Positions 7,054 through 59,650 of a stretch of DNA of 64,000 bases are shown here, in pieces (position 1 is the first letter of the stretch; each line of letters starts with the position of its first letter). Source of the DNA: Nitrospirota bacterium. Lineage in GTDB: Bacteria > Nitrospirota > Thermodesulfovibrionia > Thermodesulfovibrionales > JdFR-86. Both the position numbers and the translations under genes were made by a program. The notes beneath the pieces are model-generated. The model searched no databases, was not told the origin of the DNA, and saw nothing but the letters and a program-made list of their open reading frames with translations. The stretch is taken from positions 11,443 to 75,442 of the forward strand of contig JARRLN010000002.1 of NCBI GenBank assembly GCA_037386965.1, given 5' to 3'.

Positions 7054-7215
7054 TCAGTATCCCACACCCGGGCCGGACCCGCCCCAGTAGGCGATAACAT
7101 AGTAAAGCGCCCAGGCCGCCACCAGCAGCGAGCCGATGACGAACCACAGGGGGGTCTTCTCCCGCATGTAGCTGCCGATGCGTATCTCCTTCTTCTCCCG
7201 GGTCTCCTCACTCAT
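7054..7215 (-). CDS. Small single-TM protein, FixP-N-terminal-helix/CcoQ-like (absent from the ORF track, 53 aa)
   Basis: MSEETREKKEIRIGSYMREKTPLWFVIGSLLVAAWALYYVIAYWGGSGPGVGY. The start overlaps the ccoS stop by 8 nt. P-L-W-F...A-L-Y-Y-V-I-A-Y-W resembles the NPLPRWW...ALGYLVLYP helix of CcoP. Confidence 0.45.
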   Translation of the reverse strand: MSEETREKKEIRIGSYMREKTPLWFVIGSLLVAAWALYYVIAYWGGSGPGVGY

Positions 7216-7363
7216 CGGAAAGCTCCCTCTGAAGCACGCGGTACTTTATCTCCTCCGCGTCCTCGTAATGGCCGCTGAGGACCGCCCATATGAACACGCA
7301 GAGCGCCCCAAGCCCCATCAGAACGGCGACGATGAATTCCAGTATCACAATCTCTTCGCCCAT
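7208..7363 (-). CDS. ccoS: cbb3 oxidase maturation protein CcoS/FixS (absent from the ORF track, 51 aa)
   Basis: MGEEIVILEFIVAVLMGLGALCVFIWAVLSGHYEDAEEIKYRVLQRELSDE: one TM followed by W-A-V-x-S-G-x-(Y/F)-(E/D)D, the CcoS family pattern. Confidence 0.65.
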   Translation of the reverse strand: MGEEIVILEFIVAVLMGLGALCVFIWAVLSGHYEDAEEIKYRVLQRELSDE

Positions 7364-7447
7364 GCCCGCTCCCCCGGGAAAGGCCTCCGCGGCGGCGCCC
7401 CGGCGGAGCAGCCACCCCTTCCCCTTTTCCTTTGGCTCACCTCAAGC

Positions 7448-8188
7448 TCACTGTTCTTCCCGCCGGACCTTCAGCTCTATCGTGCCCATGTCCGTTTTGC
7501 CGCCGGCCTTGACGGTGACGGGCTTCTCCACGGTCTCGGCCCCTTCCTGCCAAATGACCACCGTGTAGTCCCCGGGAGGGATGTCCCCGATGCTGAAGTC
7601 CCCGTCCTCCGAAGACAGGGCATAGTACGGGTTGTCGGCCACGTAAATCCAGGCCCTCATCCACTGGTGCACGTCGCATTTCACGTGCATGAGCCCGGCT
7701 GTATTTATCTTCTTTTCCACCTTGGCGCCCTTGAAGGGAAGGGCCACGTTGAAGACCGTATTGCCCCTGATGAAACCGTGCGTATTGTGTAAAATGGGAT
7801 CCGAATCCAGTATGGTCAGGGTATCCCCCACGGGCATCGCCTGGACGTGGGGTTCGAACGCGCACTTCTTGTTGTTCAGCGTATAGGTCCGCTTTGCCGG
7901 CCACCTCTTCCCGCTTTCCACGCTCTTCAGATAGACGACGGCGTCCTTCACCCCATTGTCATCGCCCACCTCGATGAGCGCCTCCTTCCGCATGCCGTCG
8001 CACACGCTCTTGTTCTTGTTGGGTATGATGGTCCGCTCGGGGGGCGACCCCTTGAAGATGACCCTCCCCACCACCGATCCACCGTCGGACACCGTCTCCT
8101 CCTTGTAGGCGTCCGCGGGTGCCGCAGAAAAAACAAGTACGGCGAGCAACATCGTCAAGGCGACACCTGCCGGTACTGTATGTCTCAC
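7448..8188 (-). CDS. Secreted cupredoxin-like protein (putative type-1 Cu site) with beta-sandwich (carboxypeptidase-regulatory-like) segments
   Basis: Signal peptide ending APADA. Candidate ligand set HNTH ... C-D-V-H-Q-W-M (C-x2-H-x2-M). C-terminal GDFSIGDIPPGDYTVVIWQEG. Confidence 0.6.
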   Translation of the reverse strand: MRHTVPAGVALTMLLAVLVFSAAPADAYKEETVSDGGSVVGRVIFKGSPPERTIIPNKNKSVCDGMRKEALIEVGDDNGVKDAVVYLKSVESGKRWPAKRTYTLNNKKCAFEPHVQAMPVGDTLTILDSDPILHNTHGFIRGNTVFNVALPFKGAKVEKKINTAGLMHVKCDVHQWMRAWIYVADNPYYALSSEDGDFSIGDIPPGDYTVVIWQEGAETVEKPVTVKAGGKTDMGTIELKVRREEQ

Positions 8189-8317
8189 TCTTCTGCCTCC
8201 TCTCGTTTCTCCATGGTCAGCCTCGCTCCGCCGGTTCGCCGCTTCCCTGGGCTCCTTTCCCCTGCTGCTTTCTCTGCCCTGCTTCCTGCGTCCCCTCGGG
8301 CGCTTTCTTCGCCGTCT

Positions 8318-11082: not shown

Positions 11083-11110
11083 ACTTTAACACTCCGAGGG
11101 CAAATGTCAA
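11083..11110 (-). promoter_or_regulatory. Candidate sigma70-type promoter for ccoN (TTGACA-N16-TAAAGT with TGn extended -10)
   Basis: Minus strand reads TTGACAtttgccctcggagTGtTAAAGT, about 100 nt upstream of the ccoN ATG. The -35 overlaps the ccoI stop codon. Confidence 0.35.
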
Positions 11111-13599
11111 GAGGCAAGGGACACCGCCCTCTCGCCCACTCTTTCTCCGCTTGCGGGAGCGCGGCGCCTCTCCACTCCGAGCCTCAGGGAGTTGGCGGCC
11201 ACCACCAGGGAACTGCCCGCCATCAGTGCGGCCGATGCGATGGGATGGATGAGCCCCGTCACCGCCAGGGGTAAAGCGACCAGATTATAGGAGAAGGCCC
11301 AGAAGAGGTTCTGCCTGACGGCCCCAAGCGTGTGGGAGGCTATCTTGAGGAGAGAAGGGAGAAGCCGAAGGTCCTCTCTCAGGAAGACCACGTCGGCGCT
11401 CTTTCGGGCGACGTCGGTCGCCTTACCCACCGCAACCCCCACATGGGCCTCGGCCAGCGCGGCAGCGTCGTTTATGCCGTCGCCCACCATCATCACCCTC
11501 CTGCCCGATTCCCGCAAAGCGCGGACGTATTGCGCCTTCTCGATGGGGGAGGCCCCGCCCCTGATAACGTCCGCCTCCCCGGCGCGTTCTTCCTCGCCCA
11601 GGAGGCCGGCCTCCACAGCCATTGTCCTTACGGCCTCCGGGATATCCCCGCTCCGCACTCGCACGTCCAGGCCCCTCGCCGCGAGGGCCCTCATGACCTC
11701 GCCCGCCTCGGGCCTCGGGGGGTCGGCCAGGGCGAACCACCCGGCAAGCCCGCCATCCTGGGCCAGGCCCACCACGGTCTTCCCCGCCCGGCTCAGGCCG
11801 GCCCGCATGTCTTCCTCCGCGGGCCTCCACGTGACGCCCCGCTCCCTGAGGAAACGCCCGCTCCCCAGCACGACGTTCCGCCCGCCGACCCTGCCCTCTA
11901 CGCCGCCTCCGGGGTGGGCCCTGAAATCCTCCACCGGAAGGAGGCCGCCCTCGGCGGCCCCTGCCAGGGCCCGTCCCAGGGCGTGCTCCGAACGGCTCTC
12001 CAGGGAGGCGGCCAGTAGACGGAGCTCCTCCTCGCCCATGCCCGTGGCCGCCACATCGGTGAGAGCGGGCCGCCCCATGCTCAGGGTGCCGGTCTTGTCG
12101 AAGACGACGACGTCCACCCCGCCCAGGGCCTCCAGCACGTCGCCCCCTCTGAGTAAAATCCCCTCCGAGGAGGCCCGCGAGGAGCCCCTCAGCATGGCCA
12201 TGGGAGTGGCCAGCCCCAGGGCGCAGGGGCAGGCGATGACCAGCACCGAGACGGCGTTCATGAGGGCGGCCGAGGTCCCCACGCCCCGCGAGAGCCAGTA
12301 AAGGAACGTCCCCGCCGCCACAGCGCAGACGGCGGGCACCGCCCATCCCACTACCTTGTCAGCCGCCCTCTGAACGGGGGCCTCCCGTCCCTGGGCCTCC
12401 TCGACCGCGCGGATGACCCGGGCCAGCACGGTGTCTCCGGTTCCCCCGCTGGCCCTGAGCGTGATGCTCCCCGTAAGGTTCGCGGTCCCGGCAAAGACCC
12501 GTTCCCCCGGGGCCTTTCCCACGGGCATGGGCTCGCCCGTAAGCATGGACTCGTCCACCTCGCCGCCGCCGGCCACCACCATGCCATCAAGGGGAACGGC
12601 CTCCCCCGGGATAACCTCGAGGAGGTCGCCCTCCCTGAGGGCAGACAGGGGAACGACCTGCCGCTCTCCGCCGCTCAGGACGGCCCGGGCCTGACAGGGC
12701 TGGAGGGACAGGAGGGCGCCCAGGGCCTCCTGTCCCTTGCCCCTGGCCCCCGCCTCAAGGAGCCGCCCGAAGAGGATGAGGGTGACGATCATCACCGCGG
12801 TGTCGAAGTAGACCTCCCCTCCCCTGAGCACCTGCACGGCACTGAAGGCGTACGCGCTCATGGAGCCCAGAAAGACCAAGGTGTCCATGGTGGCCGCGCG
12901 ATTGCGGATGCCCCGGAGAGTGTGGACGATGAAGGGATACCCGGAGTAAAAGAGCACCGGGGTCGCCAGGGCCCACATGACGGCCTGGATGAGCCTCTTG
13001 GCCCAGGGGTCCATGCCGTCGAAGTAGCCAATGTACAGGGCCAGAGAGAAAAGCATGACCTGAAGCGAGAAAAACCCCGCCGTCCCCAGGCGTATGAGGA
13101 GGCTCTTCCTTTCCCGGGCGATGGCCTCCGCAAAGCCGGAGGAGAAGGCGGGGCGGGGCGAATACCCCAGCGAGCTTATCCTTTCCAGAACGGCCCCGAG
13201 GTCCGTCCTCTCCGGGTCCCAGCGTACCCTTGCCCGGTGGGTCGCGTAGTTGACCCTGGCGGAGGTCACCCCCGCCTGCCTGCCCAGCACACGCTCGATG
13301 AGCCAGACGCAGGCCGCGCACCTTAGGCCCGAAAGCGAGAGGTCCAGTTGTCTTTCGCCCCCTGCGCTCAGGACCTGGTCCTCGAAGAGCGCCGGCGAGG
13401 CGGCCTCGAAGACCGGACGCCCGGGCCTCCATCCCTCCCGAAGGCCGTAGAAAGACGCGAGGCCCTGCCCGCAAAGAAGCTGGTAAACCCCACGGCAGCC
13501 CGTGCAGCAGAACGTCTTGTCGCCTTCCCGGACGGCCCCCGCCCCCGCGGCCTCCCCCAGGCAATGGGCACACGTCGGCGTATGCTCCGGCCTTTCCAT
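11107..13599 (-). CDS. ccoI: Copper-translocating P1B-type ATPase, CcoI/FixI-like
   Basis: N-terminal CAHC...FCCTGC metal-binding domain, HMA domain with CAAC, CPC (VIACPCALGLATP), DKTGTLS, GDGINDAAALA. Sits in the cco cluster. Confidence 0.85.
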   Translation of the reverse strand: MERPEHTPTCAHCLGEAAGAGAVREGDKTFCCTGCRGVYQLLCGQGLASFYGLREGWRPGRPVFEAASPALFEDQVLSAGGERQLDLSLSGLRCAACVWLIERVLGRQAGVTSARVNYATHRARVRWDPERTDLGAVLERISSLGYSPRPAFSSGFAEAIARERKSLLIRLGTAGFFSLQVMLFSLALYIGYFDGMDPWAKRLIQAVMWALATPVLFYSGYPFIVHTLRGIRNRAATMDTLVFLGSMSAYAFSAVQVLRGGEVYFDTAVMIVTLILFGRLLEAGARGKGQEALGALLSLQPCQARAVLSGGERQVVPLSALREGDLLEVIPGEAVPLDGMVVAGGGEVDESMLTGEPMPVGKAPGERVFAGTANLTGSITLRASGGTGDTVLARVIRAVEEAQGREAPVQRAADKVVGWAVPAVCAVAAGTFLYWLSRGVGTSAALMNAVSVLVIACPCALGLATPMAMLRGSSRASSEGILLRGGDVLEALGGVDVVVFDKTGTLSMGRPALTDVAATGMGEEELRLLAASLESRSEHALGRALAGAAEGGLLPVEDFRAHPGGGVEGRVGGRNVVLGSGRFLRERGVTWRPAEEDMRAGLSRAGKTVVGLAQDGGLAGWFALADPPRPEAGEVMRALAARGLDVRVRSGDIPEAVRTMAVEAGLLGEEERAGEADVIRGGASPIEKAQYVRALRESGRRVMMVGDGINDAAALAEAHVGVAVGKATDVARKSADVVFLREDLRLLPSLLKIASHTLGAVRQNLFWAFSYNLVALPLAVTGLIHPIASAALMAGSSLVVAANSLRLGVERRRAPASGERVGERAVSLAS

Positions 13600-14366
13600 C
13601 AGCCCAGCGCCCTCACGAGGATGAGCACCCCCATGAGAACGACGATACCCCCCGAGACCGCGGACAGCCTCTTCCTTGCCCGCTCACCCAGGAGCCCGGC
13701 CACCTTGCCGAAGGCCGCCAGGGGGGCCACCGTCCCCAGGCCGAAAAGAAACATCAGGGCCATGCCGCTTAAGAGGGCCGCTCCGTGAGTTTGGGCCTCC
13801 ACGCCCATCCCCAGGGCGGTCATCAGGACCGAATAGACCAAGCCGCAGGGCAGAAAACCCAGGGCCACACCCATGGGATAGAACGTCCCCACCGACGCCT
13901 CGCCCGCGAAAAGGCCCACGAGCCGCCCAAGTACGGGGAGACGCCCCACCCCTCTTTCGAGGTAGCCGGCCAGAGGCAGCCATCCCGCCGTGCTCGCCCC
14001 CATGAGGACGACGAACACCCCCGCCAGGGCCATGGGCATCTTCCCGAGCCAGTGCAGATGCTCCGCCGGGAGAACCCCGGCGGCCGTCACCGAGAAAGAG
14101 CCCGCGAGTGCCACGCCAGCCCCGAGGAGCACGTAGGTGGTTATTCTGCCGGCGTTATAAAGCGCGTGGGGAAGAAAGCTCCTGGCCGGCAGGACCAGCG
14201 AATAGGACGCCACGATGGGGCCGCACATGCCGATGCAATGGCCCAGGCCTCCGGTGAGTCCGGCAGCCAGGGTCAGGAGATAGATTTCCGGCATGCCCCA
14301 AGCGTACCGGAAAAAGAAATGACGGGCAAGCGCACCGGAAGAGCCTTCGCCGGGCTGTGTTACCAT
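13599..14366 (-). CDS. DsbD_2/TauE-like membrane protein with HCxxMCGP motif (cco-cluster accessory)
   Basis: GLGHCIGMCGPIV motif, about 6 TM. The stop overlaps the ccoI start by 1 nt (TGATG). An alternative start at 14294 (MPEIYLL) is equally plausible. Confidence 0.65.
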   Translation of the reverse strand: MVTQPGEGSSGALARHFFFRYAWGMPEIYLLTLAAGLTGGLGHCIGMCGPIVASYSLVLPARSFLPHALYNAGRITTYVLLGAGVALAGSFSVTAAGVLPAEHLHWLGKMPMALAGVFVVLMGASTAGWLPLAGYLERGVGRLPVLGRLVGLFAGEASVGTFYPMGVALGFLPCGLVYSVLMTALGMGVEAQTHGAALLSGMALMFLFGLGTVAPLAAFGKVAGLLGERARKRLSAVSGGIVVLMGVLILVRALG

Positions 14367-17772: not shown

Positions 17773-18837
17773 ATGGAAGCAGGCAAGTTCTGCACGCCCG
17801 ACATGTGCTCCCTCTGCGAAGAGATTGCCTCGGCGTACGGACTGGACGAGACCCTGAACGTGCTGGCCCGGAACATGGCAAACGCCCTGAACGCCAGGGC
17901 CTGCGCCATCTATCTCTTCGAGCGGGAGAAGCTTTCCCTCGTGCCCGCCGCCTCCCACGGCCTCCCAATTGGCCTCCTCCCGAGCGGTCCCCGCCCTGTG
18001 AAGGAGGGCTCGATTGAGCTCAGGGTGCTCGGGGGAGAGGTGGTGGACGTCCCGGACATCGCGGGAAGGTCCGACGTCCTGGACGGCGAAGCCCTGGCGT
18101 CGGCCGGCGTGCGGTCCGCCTCTTTCCACTGCCTCCGGGTGCGAGGCAGGGCCCTGGGCCTTGTGGCGGTGTACAGCGACGCACCCCGGGAGCTTTCGGA
18201 GGTGGAGAGGAGGACGGCCCGGACCCTGACCTCCCTGGGCGGGGTCCTTGCAGACAGGGCGACCATCTGGGAGAGGATGGAAACCCTCATCGAGACGGCG
18301 CGCTCCCTGAGCTCCACGCTCTCCCTGGACGAGGTCCTGGGCAGGCTCGTGGAGCGGGCGGCGGAGTCCCTGGACCTCAAGGCCGCTTCCATCAGGCTCC
18401 TGGGCCCCGAGAGGGAGAGGCTTGACATCAGGGCCACCTACGGGCTGAGCGACGCCTATCTGGCCAAGGGACCCGTGGAGGTGGCCAGAAGCCCCCTGGA
18501 CAGGGAATGCATCGCGGGCAACGTCGTCGAGATATCCGACGTCGAGCGCGACGGGAGGCTCCAGTATCAGGAGGCCATCCGGGAAGAAGGCATAGGGGCG
18601 CTGCTTTCCGTCCCCCTCACCTCGCGGGGCACGGTGCTCGGCGTCCTCAGGGTCTATACGGCTCATCCCTACAAGTTCTCCCGGTCCGAGGTCGATTACA
18701 TCTCCGCCCTGGCAAGCCACGGGGCGGCTGCCATCGAGAACGCGCGCCTCTTCGAGCACATCCAGAAAGAGTACGAGGAGCTGACCAGGGATGTCTGGAA
18801 ATGGTACGACTGGGGTGCGCGCTTCCCCCGGATGTAA
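17773..18837 (+). CDS. Tandem GAF-domain protein with no recognisable output domain
   Basis: 354 aa with two GAF-like halves (ALGLVAVYSD... and VLGVLRVYTAHPYKFS...). N-terminal Cys triad C-x4-C-x2-C. Confidence 0.65.
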   Translation: MEAGKFCTPDMCSLCEEIASAYGLDETLNVLARNMANALNARACAIYLFEREKLSLVPAASHGLPIGLLPSGPRPVKEGSIELRVLGGEVVDVPDIAGRSDVLDGEALASAGVRSASFHCLRVRGRALGLVAVYSDAPRELSEVERRTARTLTSLGGVLADRATIWERMETLIETARSLSSTLSLDEVLGRLVERAAESLDLKAASIRLLGPERERLDIRATYGLSDAYLAKGPVEVARSPLDRECIAGNVVEISDVERDGRLQYQEAIREEGIGALLSVPLTSRGTVLGVLRVYTAHPYKFSRSEVDYISALASHGAAAIENARLFEHIQKEYEELTRDVWKWYDWGARFPRM

Positions 18838-19876
18838 GGCCGTCCTCACGCCCAAGGAATCATTGCCGGGGCTCCTGGACTCCCTGCGCCCCGCATACGG
18901 GCTTGCCGGCCCGGTCCCCTTGGGAGAACAGACCGTCTTCAGCCGCGTGGACTCCGCCGGGCAATTGAAGATGGACTATTCCTCCACCATGGCTCCTCCG
19001 GGGAAGCTCTTCCTTTATCCGTCCAGGGAGAACATTCTCCGGTTCCGCACCGAAGGGGAAAGCGCGGAGGTGGAGAGTTTTCCGGCGGAGACGGCCAAGA
19101 CGCTGCTCCTCGGCGTGCACGCCTGCGACGTACACGCCGTCGTTTACCTGGACAAGGTCTTTCACAACGACCCCTTCTACCGCGCCAGAAGGGAAAATAC
19201 TCTTCTGGTGGCCATCAATTGCACGGAGCCCACCCCCTTCTGCTTTTGCTCCTCCGTGGGGACGGGCCCTTTCCTCAGGGCCGGGGAAGGCTATGACGCG
19301 GTGCTTACGGACCTCGGCGAGCACTACCTGGTGGAGCTCGTAAGCGACAGGGCCGGGGACCTTCTGCGCATCGAGGGCGAGGCCGTGGGAGAGAACGTCT
19401 GGCGGCGGAAGGCCGCGCGGGAAGAAGAGGTGCGCGGGAAAATCACCAAGAGGATGGATGTGGAGGGCCTGGACGAGCTTCTTCTTCGGAACACGGAGCA
19501 TCCCGTCTGGTCGGAGACGGCGGACAGCCGTTGCCTCTCCTGCGCCAACTGCGTGATGGTCTGCCCCACCTGCTTCTGCCACGACATCGTGGACCGCGTG
19601 GACATGGCGCTTACCGAGACCGTGCGCTTCAGGCACTGGGACGCCTGCCAGGACCAGAAGTTCGCCGCCGTGCACGGGGGCAACTTCAGGCGCACGCGGG
19701 CCGCACGGCTCAGGCAGTTCGTCATGCACAAGCTCGACTACACGGCCCAGTTCGACACCATGGGCACGGTGGGCTGCGGGCGGTGCATCCAGTGGTGCCC
19801 CACGCGCATCGACTTGACGGAGATGGCCAAGGAGATACAAAGGAGCCCCGGTGAAAAACCTTCTCTTGCCCGATAA
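18791..19876 (+). CDS. hyhB: Group 3b [NiFe]-hydrogenase beta subunit (AsrA-like 4Fe-4S protein)
   Basis: CLSCANCVMVCPTCFCHD and CGRCIQWCP clusters. First gene of a four-gene sulfhydrogenase-type set. Start uncertain (ATG 18791 overlaps the GAF gene by 47 nt; GTG 18815 is possible). Confidence 0.7.
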   Translation: MSGNGTTGVRASPGCKAVLTPKESLPGLLDSLRPAYGLAGPVPLGEQTVFSRVDSAGQLKMDYSSTMAPPGKLFLYPSRENILRFRTEGESAEVESFPAETAKTLLLGVHACDVHAVVYLDKVFHNDPFYRARRENTLLVAINCTEPTPFCFCSSVGTGPFLRAGEGYDAVLTDLGEHYLVELVSDRAGDLLRIEGEAVGENVWRRKAAREEEVRGKITKRMDVEGLDELLLRNTEHPVWSETADSRCLSCANCVMVCPTCFCHDIVDRVDMALTETVRFRHWDACQDQKFAAVHGGNFRRTRAARLRQFVMHKLDYTAQFDTMGTVGCGRCIQWCPTRIDLTEMAKEIQRSPGEKPSLAR

Positions 19877-20666: not shown

Positions 20667-20686
20667 AGGGCGCGCCAACCAACGCA

Positions 20687-28491: not shown

Positions 28492-28495
28492 GCCG

Positions 28496-29319: not shown

Positions 29320-29338
29320 GCCTGCCCCTTTCGCTCCC

Positions 29339-29854: not shown

Positions 29855-29861
29855 GAATCTT

Positions 29862-30815: not shown

Positions 30816-30817
30816 GG

Positions 30818-33523: not shown

Positions 33524-33524
33524 C

Positions 33525-35284: not shown

Positions 35285-35309
35285 CCCGTCTTCTCCCGCA
35301 AACGACGGT

Positions 35310-37082: not shown

Positions 37083-37097
37083 GCGTTCAGGCGCTCG

Positions 37098-46521: not shown

Positions 46522-48361
46522 TGCCTCCCCGCAGAAACTCCAGCGGAATGTTCACCCGTATGCGCGTGCCCCGCCCTCCCTCGAGGTACCGGGAGCGCAG
46601 GCACATCCTGCCTCCCAGAAGCAGCACCCGCTCCTTCATGCCCAGAAGGCCGTAGCCCTCCGAACCGCCGGACCTGTAGACGAGCTCCTCGTCAAAGCCC
46701 ACCCCGTCGTCCTCGACGTTGATGACCAGGTCGGCGTCCTCCCTGAAAAGGTCGACCTCCACCCGGGTGGCCCCGGCGTGCCTGTCTATGTTGATGATGG
46801 CCTCCTGCACGATGCGGAAGACCATGAGCTGGCTCCTCTCGTCCATGTCGAAGGCCCCGCTTTCGGCAAAGTCGCCGGAGGAGCGCAAGGTATAGGGAAT
46901 GCCCTTTGTCCCGAGGCTCCTGTCCAGCATCCAGCGGATGGCGGACTCAAGCCCCAGGTCGTCCAGCACCGGCGGCCTCAGGTCCTTTATCACGCGCTTG
47001 ATGCCGTCCAGGAGCTGCTCCACCCGGGTAATCTGGTGGCGGAGCATATCCGGGGTGAGCTTGCCTTCCTCCAGGGACAGCAGGGCCATCTCCAGAGACA
47101 TCCCCAGGGCGGTGACCGTCTGGCTGGTCTCGTCGTGCAGCTCCCGGGCGATGCGCTTCCTCTCCTCCTCCTGTGTCACCATGGACTGCCTGAGGAGGCT
47201 GGCGAGCTGCTTCCTCCTCTTCATGAGCTCCCGGGTGCGCTCCTCCACGCGCCTTTCCAGCTCGTCGCTGTGTTGCCGGAGCCTGTCCAGGGAGTCCTTC
47301 AGCCGGAGCCGCATGCGCTCCACGCTGCCGGCCAGGGCGCCTATCTCGTCATCGCTTCTCACCTCAACCGGCTCATCCAGGTTGCCCCGTCCTATCCTGC
47401 GGGCCGCCCCGGTCAGCGCCTGGACCGGCCGCACGATGCTCCGGCTCAGGCCCACCGCCAGGAGCACGCCCGTAAACAGATAGACCACGCTCAGGATTCC
47501 CAGTATCCTGTGAAGCCTGCTCAGGTTGGCGTAGACCACCGACTGGGGCTCCCTGACCGATATGCCCCAGGGGGCCAGCCCCAGCGAGGCGAAGGCAAGG
47601 ACGTCCTCGGTGCGCCCCTCGCTTTGGCCCTGGGCTCCCTCGTGGCAGCGGTGGCAGCGGGTCACCGTGGAGGCGCCTTTCTCGATGAGGTTTCTCAGGT
47701 AGAGGTTATGGTCCACGCCGGTCAGTATGCGCGTGGGGTCGTTGCTCGAGATGATCATGCCGTGGCTGTCTATGAGCTCGATGCAGGTGCCCTCGGTGGA
47801 GGGCGTGGAGCCGATGATACGGGTAAACATGTAGCTTGCGGGGTTTATCTCCCCGCCGGCCAGCCCGATGAGACTGCCGGAGTGGTCCTTGAGGGGGACC
47901 AGGCCGAAAATGACCTTCTTGCCCGTGGTCTGGAGGGTGTAGACGTCGGATATGAGCGGCCTCTGCTCCGCCATGGCCCTGTTGACGTACGGGATGCTCA
48001 GAAGGTTGGTGCCGGAAGCGAACCTGTGGGGGTAGGACAGGACGATGTTTCCCTGCAGGTCCAGGAGGAACACGCCGTCGGTGAAGATGGAGTACTCGTA
48101 GGCGCGCCTGAGGGCCCTTCTCTCGGGCGCCCAGTCGCCGTCGTCCAGGTCGACGCTCCCGCTCAGGGAAATGTCCTGAAGCCTCGTGAGGTTGCGCTCC
48201 AGGACGTACTCCACGTCCTTGCCCAGGATGGTGGTCAGCATGAGGCGGCTTTGCATGAAGGAGTGGATGATATTGTTCGCTATGAGGTGGCTTATGACCC
48301 CGAGGCTCACCTGTATGACGGCCAAGCTGACAAGGATGAAAAAAAGTATCCTCTTCTGCAT
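46490..48361 (-). CDS. Sensor histidine kinase (Cache-like periplasmic domain containing CxxCH, HAMP, HisKA_3, HATPase)
   Basis: Two TM segments flank a roughly 250-aa periplasmic domain. CHRCH at codons 236-240. H-box ELHDETSQ. C-terminal GYGLLGMKERV. Confidence 0.85.
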   Translation of the reverse strand: MQKRILFFILVSLAVIQVSLGVISHLIANNIIHSFMQSRLMLTTILGKDVEYVLERNLTRLQDISLSGSVDLDDGDWAPERRALRRAYEYSIFTDGVFLLDLQGNIVLSYPHRFASGTNLLSIPYVNRAMAEQRPLISDVYTLQTTGKKVIFGLVPLKDHSGSLIGLAGGEINPASYMFTRIIGSTPSTEGTCIELIDSHGMIISSNDPTRILTGVDHNLYLRNLIEKGASTVTRCHRCHEGAQGQSEGRTEDVLAFASLGLAPWGISVREPQSVVYANLSRLHRILGILSVVYLFTGVLLAVGLSRSIVRPVQALTGAARRIGRGNLDEPVEVRSDDEIGALAGSVERMRLRLKDSLDRLRQHSDELERRVEERTRELMKRRKQLASLLRQSMVTQEEERKRIARELHDETSQTVTALGMSLEMALLSLEEGKLTPDMLRHQITRVEQLLDGIKRVIKDLRPPVLDDLGLESAIRWMLDRSLGTKGIPYTLRSSGDFAESGAFDMDERSQLMVFRIVQEAIINIDRHAGATRVEVDLFREDADLVINVEDDGVGFDEELVYRSGGSEGYGLLGMKERVLLLGGRMCLRSRYLEGGRGTRIRVNIPLEFLRGGNGQTDPDSHR

Positions 48362-48463: not shown

Positions 48464-49180
48464 TTATACGAACCCCTCCCCTTCCCCGGCCGGGACGTCC
48501 TCCTCCCGCCCTTGAAGGGCGTCGAGCTCCAGGGGATGCTCCCGCCGCATGCGCTCCCTTGAAATGTAGCCCGTAAAGATGCTCTTGTCCAGGGGGAAGA
48601 CGTCGGGGCTGAAAATGGAGTTGTATCCGTGCCAGACCGCAACGAGGATGAAAATGAGCATGGCCGCGTTGCTGTGCAGGGCCTTGGCCACGGGTATGCC
48701 CTCTCCGGGCAGATAGTGGGTTGCCTGGATGGGGAACCAGAGCACAAATCCCGTCGCTATCATGACCACCGCCATGGTGACGATACCCCAGTACTCCAGC
48801 TTCTGCTGGTAGGTGTAGCGCCCGCAGCGGGCGGGCCTGTCCTCGGCGCCCACATAATATTTTATGTTCTGCACCGCGTCGCGGAAGTCCTTCCTGCTGA
48901 TGAGCATGGTGGGCTCCCACCTGAAGAGCGAAAGCCCCAGGGCTGCCGCCAGCACATGCACCGCCATCAGGGCGGCGTAGGAGGCCCCCACGTACCTGTG
49001 GATGAGCCTCACGTAATCTATGCCTCCCAGGGATTCGACGACCCACCGCGAGGCCTCCACGTAGTAAAACCTCTGCGCAAGCCCTGTCACCACGAGCACG
49101 ATGATGGCCACCATGTGCACCCAGTGCTCGCCCACCCGGTAGGGGCTGAACCTCCGCACCTTGTCTCCCCTGGTCTGCAT
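48464..49180 (-). CDS. Membrane dihaem cytochrome b, FdnI/HydC (PF01292-like) family
   Basis: MQTRGDKVRRFSPYRVGEHWVHMVAI..., four TM with conserved His (HWVH, LIHRY, ALHSN, VWHGY). ATG 49180 has RBS AAGGAGG. Confidence 0.75.
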   Translation of the reverse strand: MQTRGDKVRRFSPYRVGEHWVHMVAIIVLVVTGLAQRFYYVEASRWVVESLGGIDYVRLIHRYVGASYAALMAVHVLAAALGLSLFRWEPTMLISRKDFRDAVQNIKYYVGAEDRPARCGRYTYQQKLEYWGIVTMAVVMIATGFVLWFPIQATHYLPGEGIPVAKALHSNAAMLIFILVAVWHGYNSIFSPDVFPLDKSIFTGYISRERMRREHPLELDALQGREEDVPAGEGEGFV

Positions 49181-50728: not shown

Positions 50729-51973
50729 TCAGTGGGCCTCCTTGTACTCCGGCTCTTCCCGGACGACGGGCATCCGGTTGACTATCCAGCGGAATATCAG
50801 TATGTGCAGCGTCAGCAGCGCACCCACGATGGCGACCTCCGTCCAGGGGGGCACGATGTGCTCGATATGGTGGGGCAGGTTCCAGTTGAAGGCAACGATG
50901 GAGACATTCAGCCGGTTGACGAGGATGCCCATGACGGCCCAGAAGGCCCCGAACCGCACCGCCAGGGCGCTTGCGGCCTTTACGCCGTAGGTCAGCACCA
51001 GGGCCGGTGCGAGGACGAACCCCAGTATCTCCAGGAGATACCAGTAGCCGTACGGCGTCAAAAGCGCGCCCCAGAGGTCCGCATGGGCCACGGCCACCAG
51101 CTTCATGGCGAAGTAGACATACATGGCCGCGACGGCGCCCTTGCCGAGCCCCAGGGTCAGCCTGTCCAGGTTGCCCCGGTAGGTCTCGTCCGTCGCACCC
51201 CTCAGATACCTGGCCACCAGGGTGCTGACCGCGATGACCATCGCGAGGGCGGCGTAGACACTGGATATCAGGAACAGTTGCGGGATGTAGGAGCTGTACC
51301 ACAGCGGGTGCAGCTTGCCCGGCGCAAGCAGGAACATCGCCCCCAGAGCCGACTGGTGCAGCGTGGAGAGGATGATGCCCGCGATGGTCATGGCTATGGT
51401 AATCCTGACCGCCCAGAGGCGGACCCTCCTGGCCCTGAGCCACTCAAGGATGGTGGTGCTGAACTCAAGGAACTGCACGGTCAGGTAGGTGGCGACATGC
51501 CAGGCCACCAGGAAAAGGACCGAGGCGGTGCCGAACTGCACCACCATGGGATAGTAGATGCGCCACGGCCTTCCCAGGTCCACCAGGAGGTACAGGACGG
51601 CGAACAGGTATCCCATGAACCCCGTCAGCACCCCCAGCCGCACCAGAGGCTTGTAGGCCTTGAACCCGAAAATGTAATACATGGTGGCCATGACGAAGCC
51701 CGTGGCCGAGAGGGGCACCCCTCCGAAGAGGCCCCATCCCAGCAGCAGCCCCCACGGGTACTCGTACGATGCGTGGGTCACGCTCTCCAGGCCGAAGAGG
51801 AACCGCACGGCGATGACCGGGAGGCCCACGGCCAGGACAGCGCCGGCCACGACGTTGAACGGCGTCACCAGGGAGCGCATGTACTCCGGCCAGGACATCC
51901 CCATGAGGAGCTTGCCCATGAACCAGGAGCGAAAGTCAGTCTTCTTCAGGGCGTATTCGGCCTCACCGTTCAT
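50729..51973 (-). CDS. NrfD/PsrC/HmcC-family integral membrane quinone-interacting subunit
   Basis: 414 aa, about 10 TM. The start overlaps the FeS-subunit stop (ATGA). Confidence 0.8.
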   Translation of the reverse strand: MNGEAEYALKKTDFRSWFMGKLLMGMSWPEYMRSLVTPFNVVAGAVLAVGLPVIAVRFLFGLESVTHASYEYPWGLLLGWGLFGGVPLSATGFVMATMYYIFGFKAYKPLVRLGVLTGFMGYLFAVLYLLVDLGRPWRIYYPMVVQFGTASVLFLVAWHVATYLTVQFLEFSTTILEWLRARRVRLWAVRITIAMTIAGIILSTLHQSALGAMFLLAPGKLHPLWYSSYIPQLFLISSVYAALAMVIAVSTLVARYLRGATDETYRGNLDRLTLGLGKGAVAAMYVYFAMKLVAVAHADLWGALLTPYGYWYLLEILGFVLAPALVLTYGVKAASALAVRFGAFWAVMGILVNRLNVSIVAFNWNLPHHIEHIVPPWTEVAIVGALLTLHILIFRWIVNRMPVVREEPEYKEAH

Positions 51974-52944
51974 TTTCTCACCTCCTCGCTGCCGGCCCCT
52001 TCCTTCTCCGTCTCGTGGTTCTCACGGTGGCGGACGGCGGCATACAGCATCCCGAAGAAGGCCGGCCATATCACGAAGACCGAGGGCACGGCCGCGAGGA
52101 ACCCCTTGGCGTAGGAAATGGGAGGTTGCATCGGGACGTCCTTCGGAAATCCGACCTGTTCGAAGGGAACGGGGGACAGGTACAGCCAGTTCAGGCCGCC
52201 GGCCTCTTTTTCTCCGTATATGTGGTCGACGTACGTATCCGGGCTCCGGAGAATTCTCTGCCGGGCCAGCTTCAGAAGGTCGTCGCGCCTGCCGAAGGTC
52301 ACCGCCCCCATGGGGCAGGCCGCCGCGCAGGCGGGCTTGAGCCCGTCCCTTATCCGGCCCAGGCACATTATGCACTTTTCCACCTTCGGCTCTAGGGCGC
52401 TCTCGTAATCATATGTGGGCACGTAGAAGGGGCAGGCGATCATGCAGTAGCGGCAGCCGAAGCAGAGGTCCTCGTTGTAGTGGACCGGACCCTCCGGGGT
52501 TTTGGTGTACGCATGAATGGGGCAGGCCGAGGCGCAGGCCGGCTCCATGCAGTGGTTGCACTGTATCTTTCTGTAAACAACCTTTCCCCCGGGCGTCTCG
52601 TAGCGGTTGACCACGGTATAGACCCCGGGGGTGGTCCTCCTCTCCTCGTCGAACACCGACGAGTCGGTGAAGGGCGTCTCGGGCTCCGGCAGGTCGTTGG
52701 CCTCGTTGCAGGCCTTCTCGCAGCTCCGGCAGCCCACGCAGAGGCTCAGGTCGGTGAGCATGCCGTAGCTTCCGGGGTAGCCGGTGAAGTTCTCCGAGCC
52801 CCCGGCCTTCTTCGGGTGTCCCAGAACGGCCGTTCCTCCGGCCAGGGCCATGGAGCCCAGGAAGGCCCGCCTGCTGAGGCCCCGGGAGCGGCCCTTTCCC
52901 TTGTCTTTCTTCATCCTTTTCTTTTCATCTGGTGTTTTTCCCAT
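51970..52944 (-). CDS. Tat-exported 4x[4Fe-4S] ferredoxin-like subunit (HybA/HmcB/PsrB-like) with C-terminal TM
   Basis: RSRGLSRRAFLGSMALAGG Tat signal. Clusters CVGCRSCEKAC, CNHCMEPACASACP, CFGCRYCMIACP and CIMC...CAAACP. Confidence 0.85.
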   Translation of the reverse strand: MGKTPDEKKRMKKDKGKGRSRGLSRRAFLGSMALAGGTAVLGHPKKAGGSENFTGYPGSYGMLTDLSLCVGCRSCEKACNEANDLPEPETPFTDSSVFDEERRTTPGVYTVVNRYETPGGKVVYRKIQCNHCMEPACASACPIHAYTKTPEGPVHYNEDLCFGCRYCMIACPFYVPTYDYESALEPKVEKCIMCLGRIRDGLKPACAAACPMGAVTFGRRDDLLKLARQRILRSPDTYVDHIYGEKEAGGLNWLYLSPVPFEQVGFPKDVPMQPPISYAKGFLAAVPSVFVIWPAFFGMLYAAVRHRENHETEKEGAGSEEVRK

Positions 52945-52963: not shown

Positions 52964-53404
52964 CTACCGATGGGTACGGTTGTGGCACGTAAGGGCGCAG
53001 TTCTCGGGGGCTCCCAGCACGCCCATGTCCCGGTGACACGAGAAGCAAGCCCGGTGGTAGGCCACCTTCAGGGAAGGGACCTCCACCGACGCGCCCCCGG
53101 CCTTCCCGTGGCAGCTTCCACAGGGGAGGAAGGCCGCCTTGGCCGTCTGCCTGAACTGCTCCGGGGCAACGTCATGGCAGCCGTTGCAGGTGGATGCGGC
53201 CGTGGGGTGCGTGTGGTGGCACTTTGCGCACTCGCCGGCCAACATGACGTGCATGGGGTGGTCGAACCGCACCGCCTGATACCTGTCCACCAGGCTGTCC
53301 AGCACGATGGCCCCGGGGGGAGGTCCCCCCTGCCCGGCCCGGGCGAGCCAGGCGGGCAGGAGAACAACAGCCGCCAGAAACACTGTAGCCGTCATCTTCG
53401 CCAT
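52964..53404 (-). CDS. Small periplasmic multihaem cytochrome c (c3/c7-like; 4 CxxCH plus 1 CxxxCH)
   Basis: CAKCH, CNGCH, CGSCH, CFSCH and CALTCH. ATG 53404 with RBS AAGGAGG, inside ORF 52964..53449. Confidence 0.8.
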   Translation of the reverse strand: MAKMTATVFLAAVVLLPAWLARAGQGGPPPGAIVLDSLVDRYQAVRFDHPMHVMLAGECAKCHHTHPTAASTCNGCHDVAPEQFRQTAKAAFLPCGSCHGKAGGASVEVPSLKVAYHRACFSCHRDMGVLGAPENCALTCHNRTHR

Positions 53405-53414: not shown

Positions 53415-53813
53415 TTAGCTCTCCCGTCCGCCCTTGCCCTCGCGGGCATTCTTCTTGCGGCCGGTGAAGTACGCCTCCACGGGGCTCCACCCGTAGGACG
53501 AGCCCGCGCCCAGGAGCCTGCCCAGGCCGTTGACGACCGCGATGGCGATGGCGGCGACGAAGGTCAGGGGCAGAAGGGTCACGTACAAAAGACCGATGAA
53601 GGGTGCGGACACCATCCGTCCGACGCTCCTCATGGTCTCCCGGTACCCGGTGGACCTGATGTACTGCGCATCCTCCCGGGTGGCCTGGGCCAGGCCCTGG
53701 AACGGACGCGGCTTGAGGAGTTCCCAGAGGAGAATAAACCCGGCTATTGCGCTGATGGCCAGGATATACTCCACCGCCTTGACGTGGGTGAGGAAATCAA
53801 ACAGGGTGTTCAT
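53415..53813 (-). CDS. Small 2-TM membrane protein, uncharacterised family (paralogue A)
   Basis: 132 aa with a GGAGG RBS. The C-terminal motif P-F-I-G-L-L-Y-V-x-L-L-P ... W-x3-EAY-F-T-GRKK is shared with 53904..54269. Confidence 0.6.
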   Translation of the reverse strand: MNTLFDFLTHVKAVEYILAISAIAGFILLWELLKPRPFQGLAQATREDAQYIRSTGYRETMRSVGRMVSAPFIGLLYVTLLPLTFVAAIAIAVVNGLGRLLGAGSSYGWSPVEAYFTGRKKNAREGKGGRES

Positions 53814-57212: not shown

Positions 57213-58031
57213 TCAGGGGCGCCGCTCCTGAGAGAGGGACAGGATGTAGTTGACGAGGTCCCAGAGGTCCCTCTCGTTTCCCTCGAAGAAGGCTTCATAC
57301 GAAGGCATCGGGGAGCCGTTCATGCCCGTCACCAGGGTCCTGTAGATATCCTCCGGGCGGTCGCCGTTTTTGAACGAAGCCGGCCTGGTCAGGTCCGCCG
57401 GGGCTATGAGGAATCCCCAGTCGTCCCTGAGCGTGGGCGCCGAACCGCCGTCTCCCCGCCCCCCGCCGCCGTGGCACGCGAAGCACTGCAATTTCTGGTA
57501 GACCTGGTATCCCCTCTGGGCGCTGGCGGGCGTCATGGGCTTGGGATATCCCACAATCGGGACAGGTTGTGGATTCGCGTTTTCAAAGCCCGGGAAGAAA
57601 CCTTTGACAAAGTAAATGATTTTCCAGCGGTCGGCCACGCCGAGCCCCGTGAAGGGAGGCATGAATCCCCGCACGCCAGCCGTCACCGTCCGAAACAGGT
57701 CTTCGTCCGTCGGGAGCTCTCCGCTCGGCGTGGACCGGAACTTGAACACCCCGTCGGCAAAGACGCGCGGGCGAGGGGCGAAATCCCGCGCGAGGTAGAC
57801 CGCAGCCGGGCCGTCGCCCTCTCCCTTGACCCCGTGGCACAGGGCGCAGGACCTGTCATACATGGCCTTGCCTTGGGCGCGCGTGGTTTCGTTTACGGGC
57901 GGCCTCTTCGAATACTGCGCCACCGGAATCGGCAGCTCCTGGGCTGCCTCCGTGCGGCCCGGAACCGCCAACAGGACGGAAAGCCCCGCCAAGGCTGCCG
58001 TAAGAATGGAAATGAGCTTTGTCCGTATCAT
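57213..58031 (-). CDS. Periplasmic dihaem cytochrome c, paralogous to the CcoP-like half of the fused CcoO-CcoP
   Basis: Signal peptide. CALCHGVKGEGDG and CFACHGGGGRGDG. FKFRSTPSGELPTDEDLFRTVTAGVRG matches FKFRSTPTGSLPLDTDLYRTITIGVRG at 8318..9658. Confidence 0.85.
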   Translation of the reverse strand: MIRTKLISILTAALAGLSVLLAVPGRTEAAQELPIPVAQYSKRPPVNETTRAQGKAMYDRSCALCHGVKGEGDGPAAVYLARDFAPRPRVFADGVFKFRSTPSGELPTDEDLFRTVTAGVRGFMPPFTGLGVADRWKIIYFVKGFFPGFENANPQPVPIVGYPKPMTPASAQRGYQVYQKLQCFACHGGGGRGDGGSAPTLRDDWGFLIAPADLTRPASFKNGDRPEDIYRTLVTGMNGSPMPSYEAFFEGNERDLWDLVNYILSLSQERRP

Positions 58032-58044
58032 GGCCTGTCCTCCG

Positions 58045-59535
58045 TTAAAACGCCATGTCGACGCCGACGGACGCGATGTATTGGAGGTTCCTCGCCGGGC
58101 TCTCCGCACTCCCGAGCCCGGGCGGCAGCTTCTTGGAGCCCGCAAGGTTGAAATGAGACCGCGCGTAAAGTCCGATGTTGGGCACCGGGTAGAACTTGGC
58201 CAGCACGCCCAGGAACGAGGCGTCTTGGTTCACCTTCGGCCCCCCCTGCTGAAGCGCGGGCGGCAGCTCCGCGAGGCCGCCGGGGTCCATGAAATCGTAC
58301 CGGGCGCCCAGGAGCCACTGGCGGTTCACCAGCCAGTCGGCCTCCACGCTGAGGCCGAAGGCGTCCTCGTCCCATTTGGAAAGGCTGCCCGGCGCGCCTG
58401 CAAACCGGACGTCGCCTATCCAGTCCCAGATGCCGGTGCCGTAGATGTCCAGGTACTTGTAGTGCCATCTTGCCGCGACGCCGAAGCGGTCCCAGTCCAC
58501 GGGCTCCGCATAGACGAAAGGCCCCGTCGCACTACCCGATGGATTAAGGGTGGGCCGGGCCGCGTCCTGGGCGTGGTAGTAGAACCCGGAGACCTGCACG
58601 TCGGAGAAAGGGCCCACGATGTCGTACCGGAGCATGCCGTAGATATCCCACCGGGTGTCCTGCGAGTCCTCGGCGGTGTCCCCCTGCGCCACGCCCACCT
58701 GGTAGAGGAAGGACGGGCCGAAGGGCCTCCCGTAGACCGTCGCCCCTTTGCTTGCGGGCACGTCGAACAGGAAGGGCTCGAAGGGGAGTATGGCGAACCC
58801 CTCGACCCCCTCCCTTGCCGGTCCGGTGGTCAGCCCGTACATCTTGCTTGAAAACGCGAAGGGAAGCATGGGGATGCGCTTTATTTCCGGGGGAAAAACA
58901 TCGGTCTCCGCATCGGGCGGTATGGGGTCCAGCTGCTGGCGGTGCGTGGGGAACGAGTAAAACGCCGACGGGTCGAAGTTTCCTATCTTGAAATTCGCAA
59001 GCTGGTAGCCGCCCAGGTTGTCGAATACGAGGAATACCCGCTCGAAGCCCAGGCCGCTTCCTTCCTCCTCGGCGTTGAACTCCCCCTCGATGAAGAAGCT
59101 GATGTTCCTGGCCGCCGTGCCGGCAAAGAAGAGGTTTATAATCTTGGGAAACACGACGTCGAAGTCCTCCTGCTTGTCGTCCTCGGTCTCCCTGAACCCG
59201 GCCTTTCTGACCTCGGCGCGCAGCCTCACGGCGGTAAAGTTGGTGACCTGGCCGAGGGTGGCGCCGCCCACGGGGCCGCCCAAAAGCTCCTTGAGCGTTC
59301 TGCCGCCCTCCTCGGTAGCGGGCATCTGGTAGCCGTTTTCCTGGAACCTCTGGCCGAAGGGGTTCAACCTGGGCTCCCGCGTATGGCAGGCGTTGCACGT
59401 CAGGTTGTACTTCCGGCCAAAGGCCGGTATGGCGTCGGCATCCCTCACGTCCAGCAGGCACAGGGACAACGAAAAGGCAGCCAGCAGAGAGGCAAACGCC
59501 ACCCACCCGCAAACCCCGGTGCGTGTCTTTTCCAT
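58045..59535 (-). CDS. Fused monohaem cytochrome c / outer-membrane beta-barrel protein (Cyc2-like architecture)
   Basis: Signal peptide, then FGRKYNLTCNACHTREPRLNPFGQRFQENGY (single CxxCH). About 430 aa of alternating, Gly/aromatic-rich sequence follows, ending ...ASVGVDMAF (terminal Phe). ATG 59535 with RBS GGGAGG. Confidence 0.7.
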   Translation of the reverse strand: MEKTRTGVCGWVAFASLLAAFSLSLCLLDVRDADAIPAFGRKYNLTCNACHTREPRLNPFGQRFQENGYQMPATEEGGRTLKELLGGPVGGATLGQVTNFTAVRLRAEVRKAGFRETEDDKQEDFDVVFPKIINLFFAGTAARNISFFIEGEFNAEEEGSGLGFERVFLVFDNLGGYQLANFKIGNFDPSAFYSFPTHRQQLDPIPPDAETDVFPPEIKRIPMLPFAFSSKMYGLTTGPAREGVEGFAILPFEPFLFDVPASKGATVYGRPFGPSFLYQVGVAQGDTAEDSQDTRWDIYGMLRYDIVGPFSDVQVSGFYYHAQDAARPTLNPSGSATGPFVYAEPVDWDRFGVAARWHYKYLDIYGTGIWDWIGDVRFAGAPGSLSKWDEDAFGLSVEADWLVNRQWLLGARYDFMDPGGLAELPPALQQGGPKVNQDASFLGVLAKFYPVPNIGLYARSHFNLAGSKKLPPGLGSAESPARNLQYIASVGVDMAF

Positions 59536-59624
59536 CGGCAAAACCTCCCGTTATCGGCGGACCAGAGTCCGTTTTCCGTGAAACCCGGGAAAATTCAAGC
59601 ACAGTCCGGCTGCATTTCATTTAC

Positions 59625-59650
59625 CTATCAAAGAACATGCAGGCTGTCAA
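59625..59650 (-). promoter_or_regulatory. Promoter-like element TTGACAGCC-N9-TTTGATAG, about 90 nt upstream of the porin-cytochrome gene
   Basis: Second copy of the element at 17738..17763, with identical fixed positions and spacing. Confidence 0.4.

Follow-up and report, generated by a model that had tools for sequence, protein, structure and literature searches.

We analysed a 64-kb stretch of DNA from a Nitrospirota bacterium (contig JARRLN010000002.1, positions 11,443 to 75,442), hereafter the window, in which genes for a Cyc2-type outer-membrane cytochrome-porin, a cbb3-type oxidase, a Rieske/cytochrome b-c complex and several further electron-transfer systems lie close together. Genes were called from third-position GC content (GC3) in this sequence of 65% G+C and annotated with Pfam and NCBIfam. 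Between positions 7054 and 59650, about 36 of about 52 genes (about 70%), distributed over at least six separate transcription units, encode electron-transfer or maturation proteins, a density that a rough estimate places far above chance for a 2.5-Mb genome. A preliminary description of the window had listed a cytochrome-porin, a soluble dihaem cytochrome c, a bc complex, a cbb3 oxidase with a cupredoxin, a full NADH dehydrogenase (NDH-1, complex I), a hydrogenase and a haem-bearing kinase, and the gene calls, Pfam and NCBIfam found all of them in place. The window contains no tRNA gene, and an Rfam scan of it matched no RNA family. The Nitrospirota metagenome-assembled genome (MAG) GCA_037386885.1 (contig JARRLO010000002.1) contains exact protein matches, as do several JGI and Logan assemblies. 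Nucleotide identity between the window and these NCBI, JGI and Logan copies is 99.4-99.9%, with small indels relative to the copy L001.

Cyc2, its dihaem cytochrome c and the cbb3 oxidase

The cytochrome-porin was assessed by the Cyc2 criteria of Keffer et al. 2021 (PMC8406198), which include a length of at least 365 amino acids (aa) and the signature AXPXFAR[Q/K][T/Y] upstream of the haem site. The window protein exceeds this length, carries its one CXXCH at residue 47 of 496, and begins with a signal peptide in which, as read from the sequence, a hydrophobic h-region is followed by DADA|IP. The region around the haem site reads AIPAFGRKY-NLT-CNACH-TRE-PRL. Eight of the nine signature positions in AIPAFGRKY agree, with Gly replacing Ala; FAR is found in at least 90% of 39 aligned Cyc2 homologues, and the Ala-to-Gly change is private to the window protein. 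The PXL motif is present four residues past CXXCH, and its P55 and L57 are invariant. An AlphaFold2 (AF2) model has 16 strands (mean predicted local distance difference test score, pLDDT, 75; predicted template modelling score, pTM, 0.77) and matches 16-strand porins such as OmpF, Omp32 and OprP in Foldseek (E 1e-12 to 5e-10), while Pfam and NCBIfam scans gave no match for the protein. Among named homologues, the closest is Tel_03480 (48% identity), a gene of Ca. Tenderia electrophaga, which oxidises cathodes; the gene is termed cyc2 in PMC5371394. The protein thus appears to be a Cyc2-family member, at family level and with one motif caveat, and Fe(II) oxidation is its predicted activity.

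The gene for the periplasmic dihaem cytochrome c starts 13 nucleotides (nt) past the cyc2 stop codon and is preceded by GGAGG. Its product shares 48% identity with the dihaem domain fused to CcoO in the oxidase cluster, and by this comparison it is a paralogue of the oxidase's own electron-entry domain. One of the deposited copies differs here: in GCA_037386885.1, 121 nt are missing inside the dihaem c gene (window 57241-57392; L002 12143-12175), which shortens the product from 272 to 218 aa, whereas the JGI, Logan and window copies are intact. The missing stretch reflects strain variation or else a fault in the assembly.

The oxidase cluster encodes a catalytic subunit that aligns over its full length with CcoN chains of solved cbb3 structures (E 1.7e-49). 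In this alignment, all six His ligands and the cross-link Tyr of helix 7 are kept. The monohaem CcoO and the dihaem CcoP are both represented in a single protein adjoining CcoN. NCBIfam scores stayed below the equivalog cut-offs, at 216 against 583 bits for TIGR00780 and 126 against 201 bits for TIGR00781, and we assign the oxidase, from its sequence features, to a divergent subfamily of the cbb3 (C-family) enzymes. A reading as nitric oxide reductase was rejected in view of the FixO partner and the CcoN-type ligands. The pair of FixS and a small transmembrane protein at the end of the cluster is also found behind the oxidase genes of another locus (L090).

The secreted protein encoded beside these subunits combines two domains, only the C-terminal one of which is recognized by Pfam, and a phmmer search against PDB was marginal (amicyanin, E 0.26). 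The AF2 model (pLDDT 92.5) has its best Foldseek PDB matches among amicyanin, plastocyanin, pseudoazurin and purple cupredoxin, with template modelling (TM) scores of about 0.7 for amicyanin and plastocyanin. Across 35 homologues, H124, H127, C161, H164 and M167 are invariant, and the loop is of the amicyanin-like C-x2-H-x2-M form. We therefore predict a type-1 copper cupredoxin whose ligands are His, Cys, His and Met. Members of this family with the same two domains also occur in other surroundings (L090 10001-12339; L091 8001-11801): beside a Metallophos protein and a SoxA/TsdA-like cytochrome and, in another genome, adjoining SoxYZ, rhodanese and an oxidase of the aa3 type. These neighbours hint that the family has a broader part in periplasmic chains that oxidise sulfur or thiosulfate.

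Relatives of the window's Cyc2 connect these two gene sets. Metagenome contigs were scanned with a Cyc2 alignment and the flanks of the hits were searched with the window's own proteins; the counts refer to homologues of at least 51% identity. The dihaem c gene directly follows cyc2 at all 17 loci. A cupredoxin of the same family lies within 9 kb downstream of cyc2 at 11/11 informative loci, at eight of them within 2 kb, and CcoN is found within 8 kb downstream at five of the eight loci informative for it. According to Pfam, locus L097 carries cyc2, dihaem c, cupredoxin, CcoN and CcoO/P as one co-directional cassette, and L100 has cyc2, dihaem c, cupredoxin, a second dihaem c, monohaem c, a truncated CcoN, CcoN and CcoO, again all in one direction. 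More distant Cyc2 homologues, that of Tenderia among them, did not have the cassette.

The conserved cassette and the 48% likeness of the dihaem c to the oxidase domain make a path from Cyc2 via the dihaem c and the cupredoxin or CcoO domain to the cbb3 oxidase the best-supported candidate route, which is well supported by gene neighbourhood. They also favour inward over outward electron flow. The downhill flow to cbb3 that had been proposed in the preliminary description thus finds support in the gene order of relatives. As a separate observation, the full CcoN and CcoO are preceded in many Cyc2 cassettes (e.g. L100 13201-17406) by a further dihaem c, a monohaem c and a CcoN truncated to 194 aa, and the oxidase part of the L100 type resembles the cbb3-1/2 region of Tenderiales and freshwater iron oxidisers.

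Table 1. Features annotated in the window, with the evidence for each.
Feature	Position	Strand	Evidence or remarks
Whole oxidase cluster	7054-14366	-	
Small transmembrane protein	7054-7215	-	In oxidase cluster
FixS/CcoS	7208-7363	-	PF03597
Predicted cupredoxin domain + CarboxypepD_reg-like beta-sandwich, secreted	7448..8188	-	Alignment, AF2, Foldseek
CcoO fused to dihaem (CcoP-like) cytochrome c, 446 aa	8318..9658	-	FixO + two Cytochrome_CBB3 domains; 3 CXXCH
CcoN, divergent C-family haem-copper oxidase catalytic subunit, 442 aa	9655..10983	-	Match to solved CcoN chains
CcoI-like heavy-metal P-type ATPase + DsbD_2 membrane protein (oxidase/cytochrome maturation)	11107..14366	-	E1-E2_ATPase, HMA, ATPase-cat_bd; DsbD_2
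XPG/FEN-1-like nuclease + three-domain ATP-dependent DNA ligase (Lig1/archaeal type)	14969-17645	-	Between oxidase and hydrogenase clusters
Double-GAF protein upstream of hydrogenase	17773..18837	+	Pfam
Four-subunit group-3b-like [NiFe] hydrogenase (beta, gamma, delta, alpha)	18791..22724	+	Fer4_22; NAD_binding_1 + DHODB FeS; Oxidored_q6; NiFeSe_Hases
nuoA, B, CD, E, F, G, H, I, J, K, L, M, N	23692..38124	-	Pfam
Cytochrome b (N + C domains) fused to dihaem cytochrome c, C-terminal transmembrane anchor	38126..40360	-	Pfam, sequence
Rieske 2Fe-2S protein, twin-arginine translocation (TAT) signal	40366..40890	-	PF00355
Spermidine-synthase-like methyltransferase (signal or anchor sequence), then polytopic membrane protein	42202-43835	+	Between bc operon and kinase
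LuxR-type response regulator	45853..46521	-	Response_reg + GerE
Histidine kinase: dCache with CHRCH haem-c motif, HAMP, HisKA_3, HATPase	46490..48361	-	Pfam; CXXCH at residue 236
Membrane cytochrome b (HmcE-like position)	48464..49180	-	PF01292 Ni_hydr_CYTB
13-haem cytochrome c, C-terminal transmembrane helix	49191..50609	-	13 CXXCH; Cytochrome_C7, c3_2, Paired_CXXCH
HmcC-like NrfD-family membrane quinone-interacting subunit	50729..51973	-	NF045714; PF03916
HmcB-like periplasmic 4Fe-4S protein, TAT signal	51970..52944	-	NF045715; RRAFL motif
Small 4-5-haem cytochrome c (c3/c7-like)	52964..53404	-	4 CXXCH + 1 CX3CH; Cytochrome_C7, c3_2
HmcD-like small membrane protein	53415..53813	-	PF28260 DVU_0533, weak; same position in L092
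Periplasmic dihaem cytochrome c (Cyc1-like position), 272 aa	57213..58031	-	Two Cytochrome_CBB3/Cytochrom_C domains, signal peptide
Cyc2-type fused cytochrome-porin, 496 aa	58045..59535	-	Signal peptide, single CXXCH, porin model

Quinone-linked complexes, NDH-1 and hydrogenase

The preliminary description had noted that NDH-1 is physically linked to the bc complex, and the gene calls bear this out, as the TGA stop codon of the cytochrome b/c gene lies 1 nt before the ATG of nuoA. NDH-1 itself is complete, with 14 subunits in 13 genes (nuoCD fused), in order and including the NADH module NuoEFG, and it has the canonical three pumping subunits. The fusion of cytochrome b to a dihaem cytochrome c is widespread in Nitrospirota. 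A scan of GTDB species genomes with a cytochrome b/c alignment yielded 80 loci, and with L007 and L008 included, 71 loci had enough downstream DNA to be evaluated. In 19 of the 71, nuoA is located no more than 1.6 kb downstream of cytochrome b/c (in nine within 300 bp); it lies farther off in four, and nuoL is found upstream in six. All 19 adjacent cases belong to Nitrospirota and include Thermodesulfovibrionales, Dissulfurispiraceae and Nitrospira, and the full order from Rieske and cytochrome b/c through nuoA to nuoL is kept in relatives at 53-57% identity. Since the linkage is ancestral and common to anaerobic sulfur-cycling clades, it provides no evidence for reverse electron flow. Judged by this distribution, it is a trait of the Nitrospirota lineage that is silent on the direction of flow, and the uphill flow through bc and complex I put forward in the preliminary description receives no specific support from an adjacency that is Nitrospirota-wide and found in anaerobes, too.

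A second complex, which the preliminary description had correctly reported as a multihaem complex and counted as five genes, actually comprises six. HmcB and HmcC are the nearest families of its iron-sulfur and NrfD subunits, at scores below the equivalog cut-offs (401.5 against 420 bits for HmcB, NF045715; 400.9 against 550 bits for HmcC, NF045714). The 16-haem HmcA and an HmcF-like gene are absent from the block at 48464-53813. An assignment to alternative complex III (ACIII) was rejected on account of the iron-sulfur subunit, a short protein of the HmcB/HybA kind, and of the best matches, which were to HmcB and HmcC. The Hmc-like genes are preceded, at 53904-54933 on the minus strand, by genes for two small proteins (120 and 176 aa) without an assigned family, which are found in the same position in the metagenome locus L092 (136-1565); judged by this shared order, they probably belong to the Hmc-like module.

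The kinase adjoining this complex had been described as carrying a putative periplasmic haem, and this holds up in the comparison with homologues. Its CHRCH motif lies inside the dCache domain and occupies one and the same alignment column in 94 of the 133 homologues taken from a 50%-identity library, which argues for a putative haem-binding sensor as a family trait and not a chance motif. A PDB sequence search with the sensor returned only KinD-like Cache domains and no haem-Cache structure. The kinase is encoded next to Hmc-like genes in L092, L093 and L094 as well. In L092 the entire ten-gene block recurs, consisting of the Hmc-like genes, the two small upstream open reading frames, the kinase and the regulator, and it is reduced in L093 and L094. 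Adjoining the kinase and regulator on the other side is a FAD/NAD(P)-binding oxidoreductase of 626 aa (43859-45739, minus strand) with the twin-arginine signal RRDFL. It is predicted to be periplasmic, and its family match is limited to the N-terminal Rossmann motif.

The hydrogenase genes have their best NCBIfam matches in the sulfhydrogenase proteins HydA and ShyA, with scores under the equivalog cut-offs. Both Ni-binding motifs are intact (L1, RICGICPISH; L2, the C-terminal DPCFSCSVH). Subunit layout and motifs predict a cytoplasmic, NAD(P)-linked enzyme of the group-3b-like type.

Organism background and the direction of electron flow

The DNA appears to come from genomospecies gsp_15 (Rolando et al. 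2024), an uncultured member of the Thermodesulfovibrionales (family JdFR-86) from Spartina roots in a salt marsh. Its genome has 2.5 Mb and 63% G+C, and a relative with a 61%-identical cytochrome b/c, Spart_118_MAG, comes from the same study. The gsp_15 rows of Data File S3 list dsrAB, aprAB and sqr, and a complete Wood-Ljungdahl set consisting of carbon monoxide dehydrogenase/acetyl-CoA synthase (CODH/ACS), fhs, folD, metF and acsBCDE, with no cbbL/S (RuBisCO), nif or sox genes; Nitrospirota dsrAB were assigned to the reductive type (Rolando et al. 2024). Thermodesulfovibrionia are generally held to be anaerobes. The gene set of gsp_15 is that of an anaerobic sulfate reducer and not of a classical microaerophilic iron-oxidising autotroph. 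The preliminary description had named a strict anaerobe or heterotroph in which the genes stay silent as one finding that would overturn its model, and gsp_15 comes close to such an organism without amounting to one.

We consider the chances about even that the window represents a respiratory island built of modules that are each conserved elsewhere, through which a facultative microaerobic branch has been grafted onto an anaerobic metabolism of the sulfate-reducer type. The first module would be a split set resembling a rus operon, with cyc2 and the dihaem c at one locus and the cupredoxin, ccoO/P and ccoN at the other. The second would be the phylum's usual operon of Rieske protein, cytochrome b/c and nuoA to nuoN, the third a transmembrane cytochrome complex of the Hmc/Nhc-like kind, which has a haem-sensing kinase and a regulator of its own, and the fourth the cytoplasmic NAD(P)-linked group-3b hydrogenase. 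When trace O2 reaches the otherwise anaerobic cell, Cyc2 in the outer membrane could accept electrons one at a time from an external donor, dissolved Fe(II) or the like, and pass them to the periplasmic dihaem c, from which they would flow via the cupredoxin, the dihaem domain fused to CcoO, or both, to the high-affinity cbb3 oxidase. This branch would both conserve energy and remove O2. The bc complex and NDH-1 may act as an ordinary quinone-level chain that probably runs forward, from NADH through menaquinone, bc and cytochrome c to cbb3; its reversal is possible and not indicated. The haem kinase might control the Hmc-like complex, which would connect menaquinone with the cytochrome pool of the periplasm.

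A more far-reaching version, which we put forward only tentatively and regard as rather doubtful, envisages a dual-mode organism on Spartina roots. It would live by anaerobic sulfate reduction and switch to energy-conserving Fe(II) oxidation or electron uptake via a cbb3-based analogue of the rus system when root-derived O2 meets Fe(II), with the haem-Cache kinase and the Hmc-like complex serving as redox switch.

Several points weigh against such a grafted microaerobic branch. In the window, the cassette is not contiguous: cyc2 and the dihaem c are located at 57-59.5 kb and the cupredoxin and cbb3 genes at 7-11 kb, 47 kb apart. The Cyc2 signature reads FGR where the consensus is FAR. Reduction of O2 by the oxidase is predicted from conserved ligands only, at scores well under the equivalog cut-offs, and the direction of the path, its donor and its conditions of use are deduced from gene content, protein families, folds and conserved neighbourhoods, which the sequences show. 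In Tenderiales, Cyc2 is regarded as auxiliary. The link between the window and gsp_15 is one of consistency and not of direct sequence comparison, and the reductive tricarboxylic acid cycle lies outside the survey of the gsp_15 table, so that another autotrophic route is possible.

The preliminary description had likened the parts of the window to those of a microaerophilic metal-oxidising lithotroph. Its Cyc2-to-oxidase part gains support, whereas the sulfate-reducer-type background and the lack of RuBisCO speak against the rest. As a full model, electrons from Cyc2 would be split in a mainly microaerophilic lithoautotroph that oxidises metals or takes up external electrons: most would go to cbb3, and the others would be driven uphill by the proton-motive force, via bc (or the Hmc-like complex) and NDH-1, to NADH for CO2 fixation. 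Every required part is present, bc and nuo are co-transcribed with their 1-nt spacer, the same logic has been proposed for Zetaproteobacteria (PMC7029218) and Tenderia (PMC5371394), and Ca. Mariimomonas, of the same class, has been proposed as a Cyc2-using chemolithoautotroph (PMC13647500). However, the bc-nuo linkage is uninformative on direction, being Nitrospirota-wide and shared with anaerobic sulfur-cycling clades. In gsp_15, which has no RuBisCO and carries dsrAB and aprAB, the candidate route of CO2 fixation is the Wood-Ljungdahl pathway, which is O2-sensitive and depends on ferredoxin, and NADH from reverse flow is no source of reduced ferredoxin. Complex I also lacks the extra-pump forms that are tied to reverse flow in Nitrospira and Manganitrophus. 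We therefore think this lifestyle unlikely.

The cbb3 oxidase could instead serve oxygen defence only. Fed by NADH or H2 via NDH-1, menaquinone and bc, it would scavenge O2 in the oscillating root zone, and Cyc2 and the dihaem c would not feed respiration, acting as a redox-active porin, in iron sensing or uptake, or in outward electron transfer. The cbb3 and bd oxidases of sulfate reducers are commonly interpreted as a defence against O2 and reactive oxygen species (PMC13657043), and the anaerobe-type background of the organism would fit this role. A rubrerythrin gene adjoins cyc2, and genes for Cu/Zn superoxide dismutase and desulfoferrodoxin come after the oxidase cluster of a relative. Yet it is difficult to account for the recurrent, tight cassette of cyc2, dihaem c, cupredoxin and cbb3 unless Cyc2 feeds electrons to the oxidase, and the dihaem c is paralogous to that oxidase's electron-entry domain; a purely protective role thus seems improbable to us.

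Conservation of the clustering in relatives, which the preliminary description had suggested checking, did not extend to the whole island in those that were examined, although the modules are individually kept. The 53-kb co-location is real and very dense, and it appears to be specific to this population instead of a conserved super-operon. That independent respiratory operons became neighbours by mere chance in one species would agree with the surroundings of the bc-nuo operon, oxidase cluster and Hmc-like block, which differ among relatives, and with the interspersed housekeeping genes (DNA ligase, FEN, spermidine synthase-like, metallo-beta-lactamase hydrolase), but we consider it very improbable, as about 70% of the genes over 53 kb, in at least six units, function in electron transfer and two of these units are the halves of a cassette that is contiguous elsewhere.

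Related systems and further observations

A close precedent for the Cyc2 set in the island of modules proposed here is the rus operon in Acidithiobacillus ferrooxidans, with the order cyc2-cyc1-cup/acoP-coxBACD-rus (PMC10654088). Both systems comprise an outer-membrane monohaem cytochrome-porin, a periplasmic dihaem c, a cupredoxin and a haem-copper oxidase, and relatives of the window's Cyc2 carry this exact order as one co-directional cassette. The window differs in its oxidase, a divergent cbb3 (C-family) enzyme in place of aa3, in having no rusticyanin in the set, in the extra CarboxypepD_reg-like domain of its cupredoxin and in the split of the set by 47 kb. The window organism, moreover, is a neutrophilic, high-GC Nitrospirota member from marine sediment.

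Cyc2 homologues are already known across Nitrospirota, and the sequence Cyc2, Cyc1, oxidase is the standard model (PMC8406198, PMC7029218). In Zetaproteobacteria and Gallionellaceae it includes a cbb3 oxidase and reverse flow through bc1 and complex I, with the same parts and logic as the model of the preliminary description (PMC7029218, PMC8406198). These bacteria are obligate or dedicated microaerophilic autotrophs with the Calvin cycle, whereas the window population is of the sulfate-reducer type with a Wood-Ljungdahl pathway. Ca. Tenderia electrophaga, which has the closest named Cyc2 (48%), shows a region of dihaem, monohaem, truncated CcoN, CcoN and CcoO genes that resembles the L100 cassette, but its cyc2 is located away from the dihaem c and the oxidase, and it has a Calvin cycle and ACIII.

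Within the same class, Cyc2-bearing Thermodesulfovibrionia were already proposed as iron oxidisers in 2026, and similar cases have been published. The Cyc2 of Ca. Mariimomonas ferrooxydans (Thermodesulfovibrionia) was shown experimentally in 2026 to oxidise Fe(II) (PMC13647500). As in the window population, Cyc2 occurs there together with genes for sulfate and nitrate reduction and carbon fixation (PMC13647500). In contrast to the window, the organism belongs to a different order, its Cyc2 falls into Cluster 3, its setting is anoxic with nitrate as the proposed acceptor, and no cbb3 cassette was described (PMC13647500). The multihaem complex, in turn, resembles the Hmc/Nhc complexes of Desulfovibrio in combining HmcB-, HmcC- and HmcD-like proteins and a membrane cytochrome b with periplasmic multihaem cytochromes. 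It differs from them in that the anchored 13-haem and the small 4-5-haem proteins replace the 16-haem HmcA, HmcF is missing, scores are below the cut-offs, and this complex has a haem-Cache kinase and a regulator coupled to it.

Three points may be useful beyond this genome: the cupredoxin-containing, cbb3-based analogue of the rus system, the haem-Cache kinase tied to Hmc-like complexes, and a caution about bc-nuo linkage, which is often taken as a sign of reverse flow and is an ancestral arrangement in Nitrospirota. Should the Cyc2-to-cbb3 branch operate as proposed, the range of iron oxidation or electron uptake would take in sulfate-reducer-type Nitrospirota of salt-marsh root zones, where the cycles of iron, sulfur and O2 meet, with a bearing on plant health. 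Compared with cyc2 by itself, the cassette of cyc2, dihaem c, cupredoxin and cbb3 seen in many genomes from marine sediment is the more specific feature and could mark aerobic, Cyc2-dependent electron uptake.

A few genes of the window touch none of these systems. The methyltransferase and membrane protein pair at 42202-43835 has no relation to the electron-transfer theme. The reading frame of a GrdB-like gene (PF07355; 4228-5043, minus strand) is broken at 4528-4530 by a TGA in frame, whose surroundings, TPG-U-GIC, form a U-x-x-C motif; a simple folding of the 60 nt downstream of the TGA gave no convincing selenocysteine insertion sequence (SECIS) hairpin (z +1.5), and the product is probably a selenocysteine protein. 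Finally, the XPG/FEN-1-like nuclease beside a ligase of the Lig1/archaeal type (14969-17645) is an unusual pairing in a bacterium.

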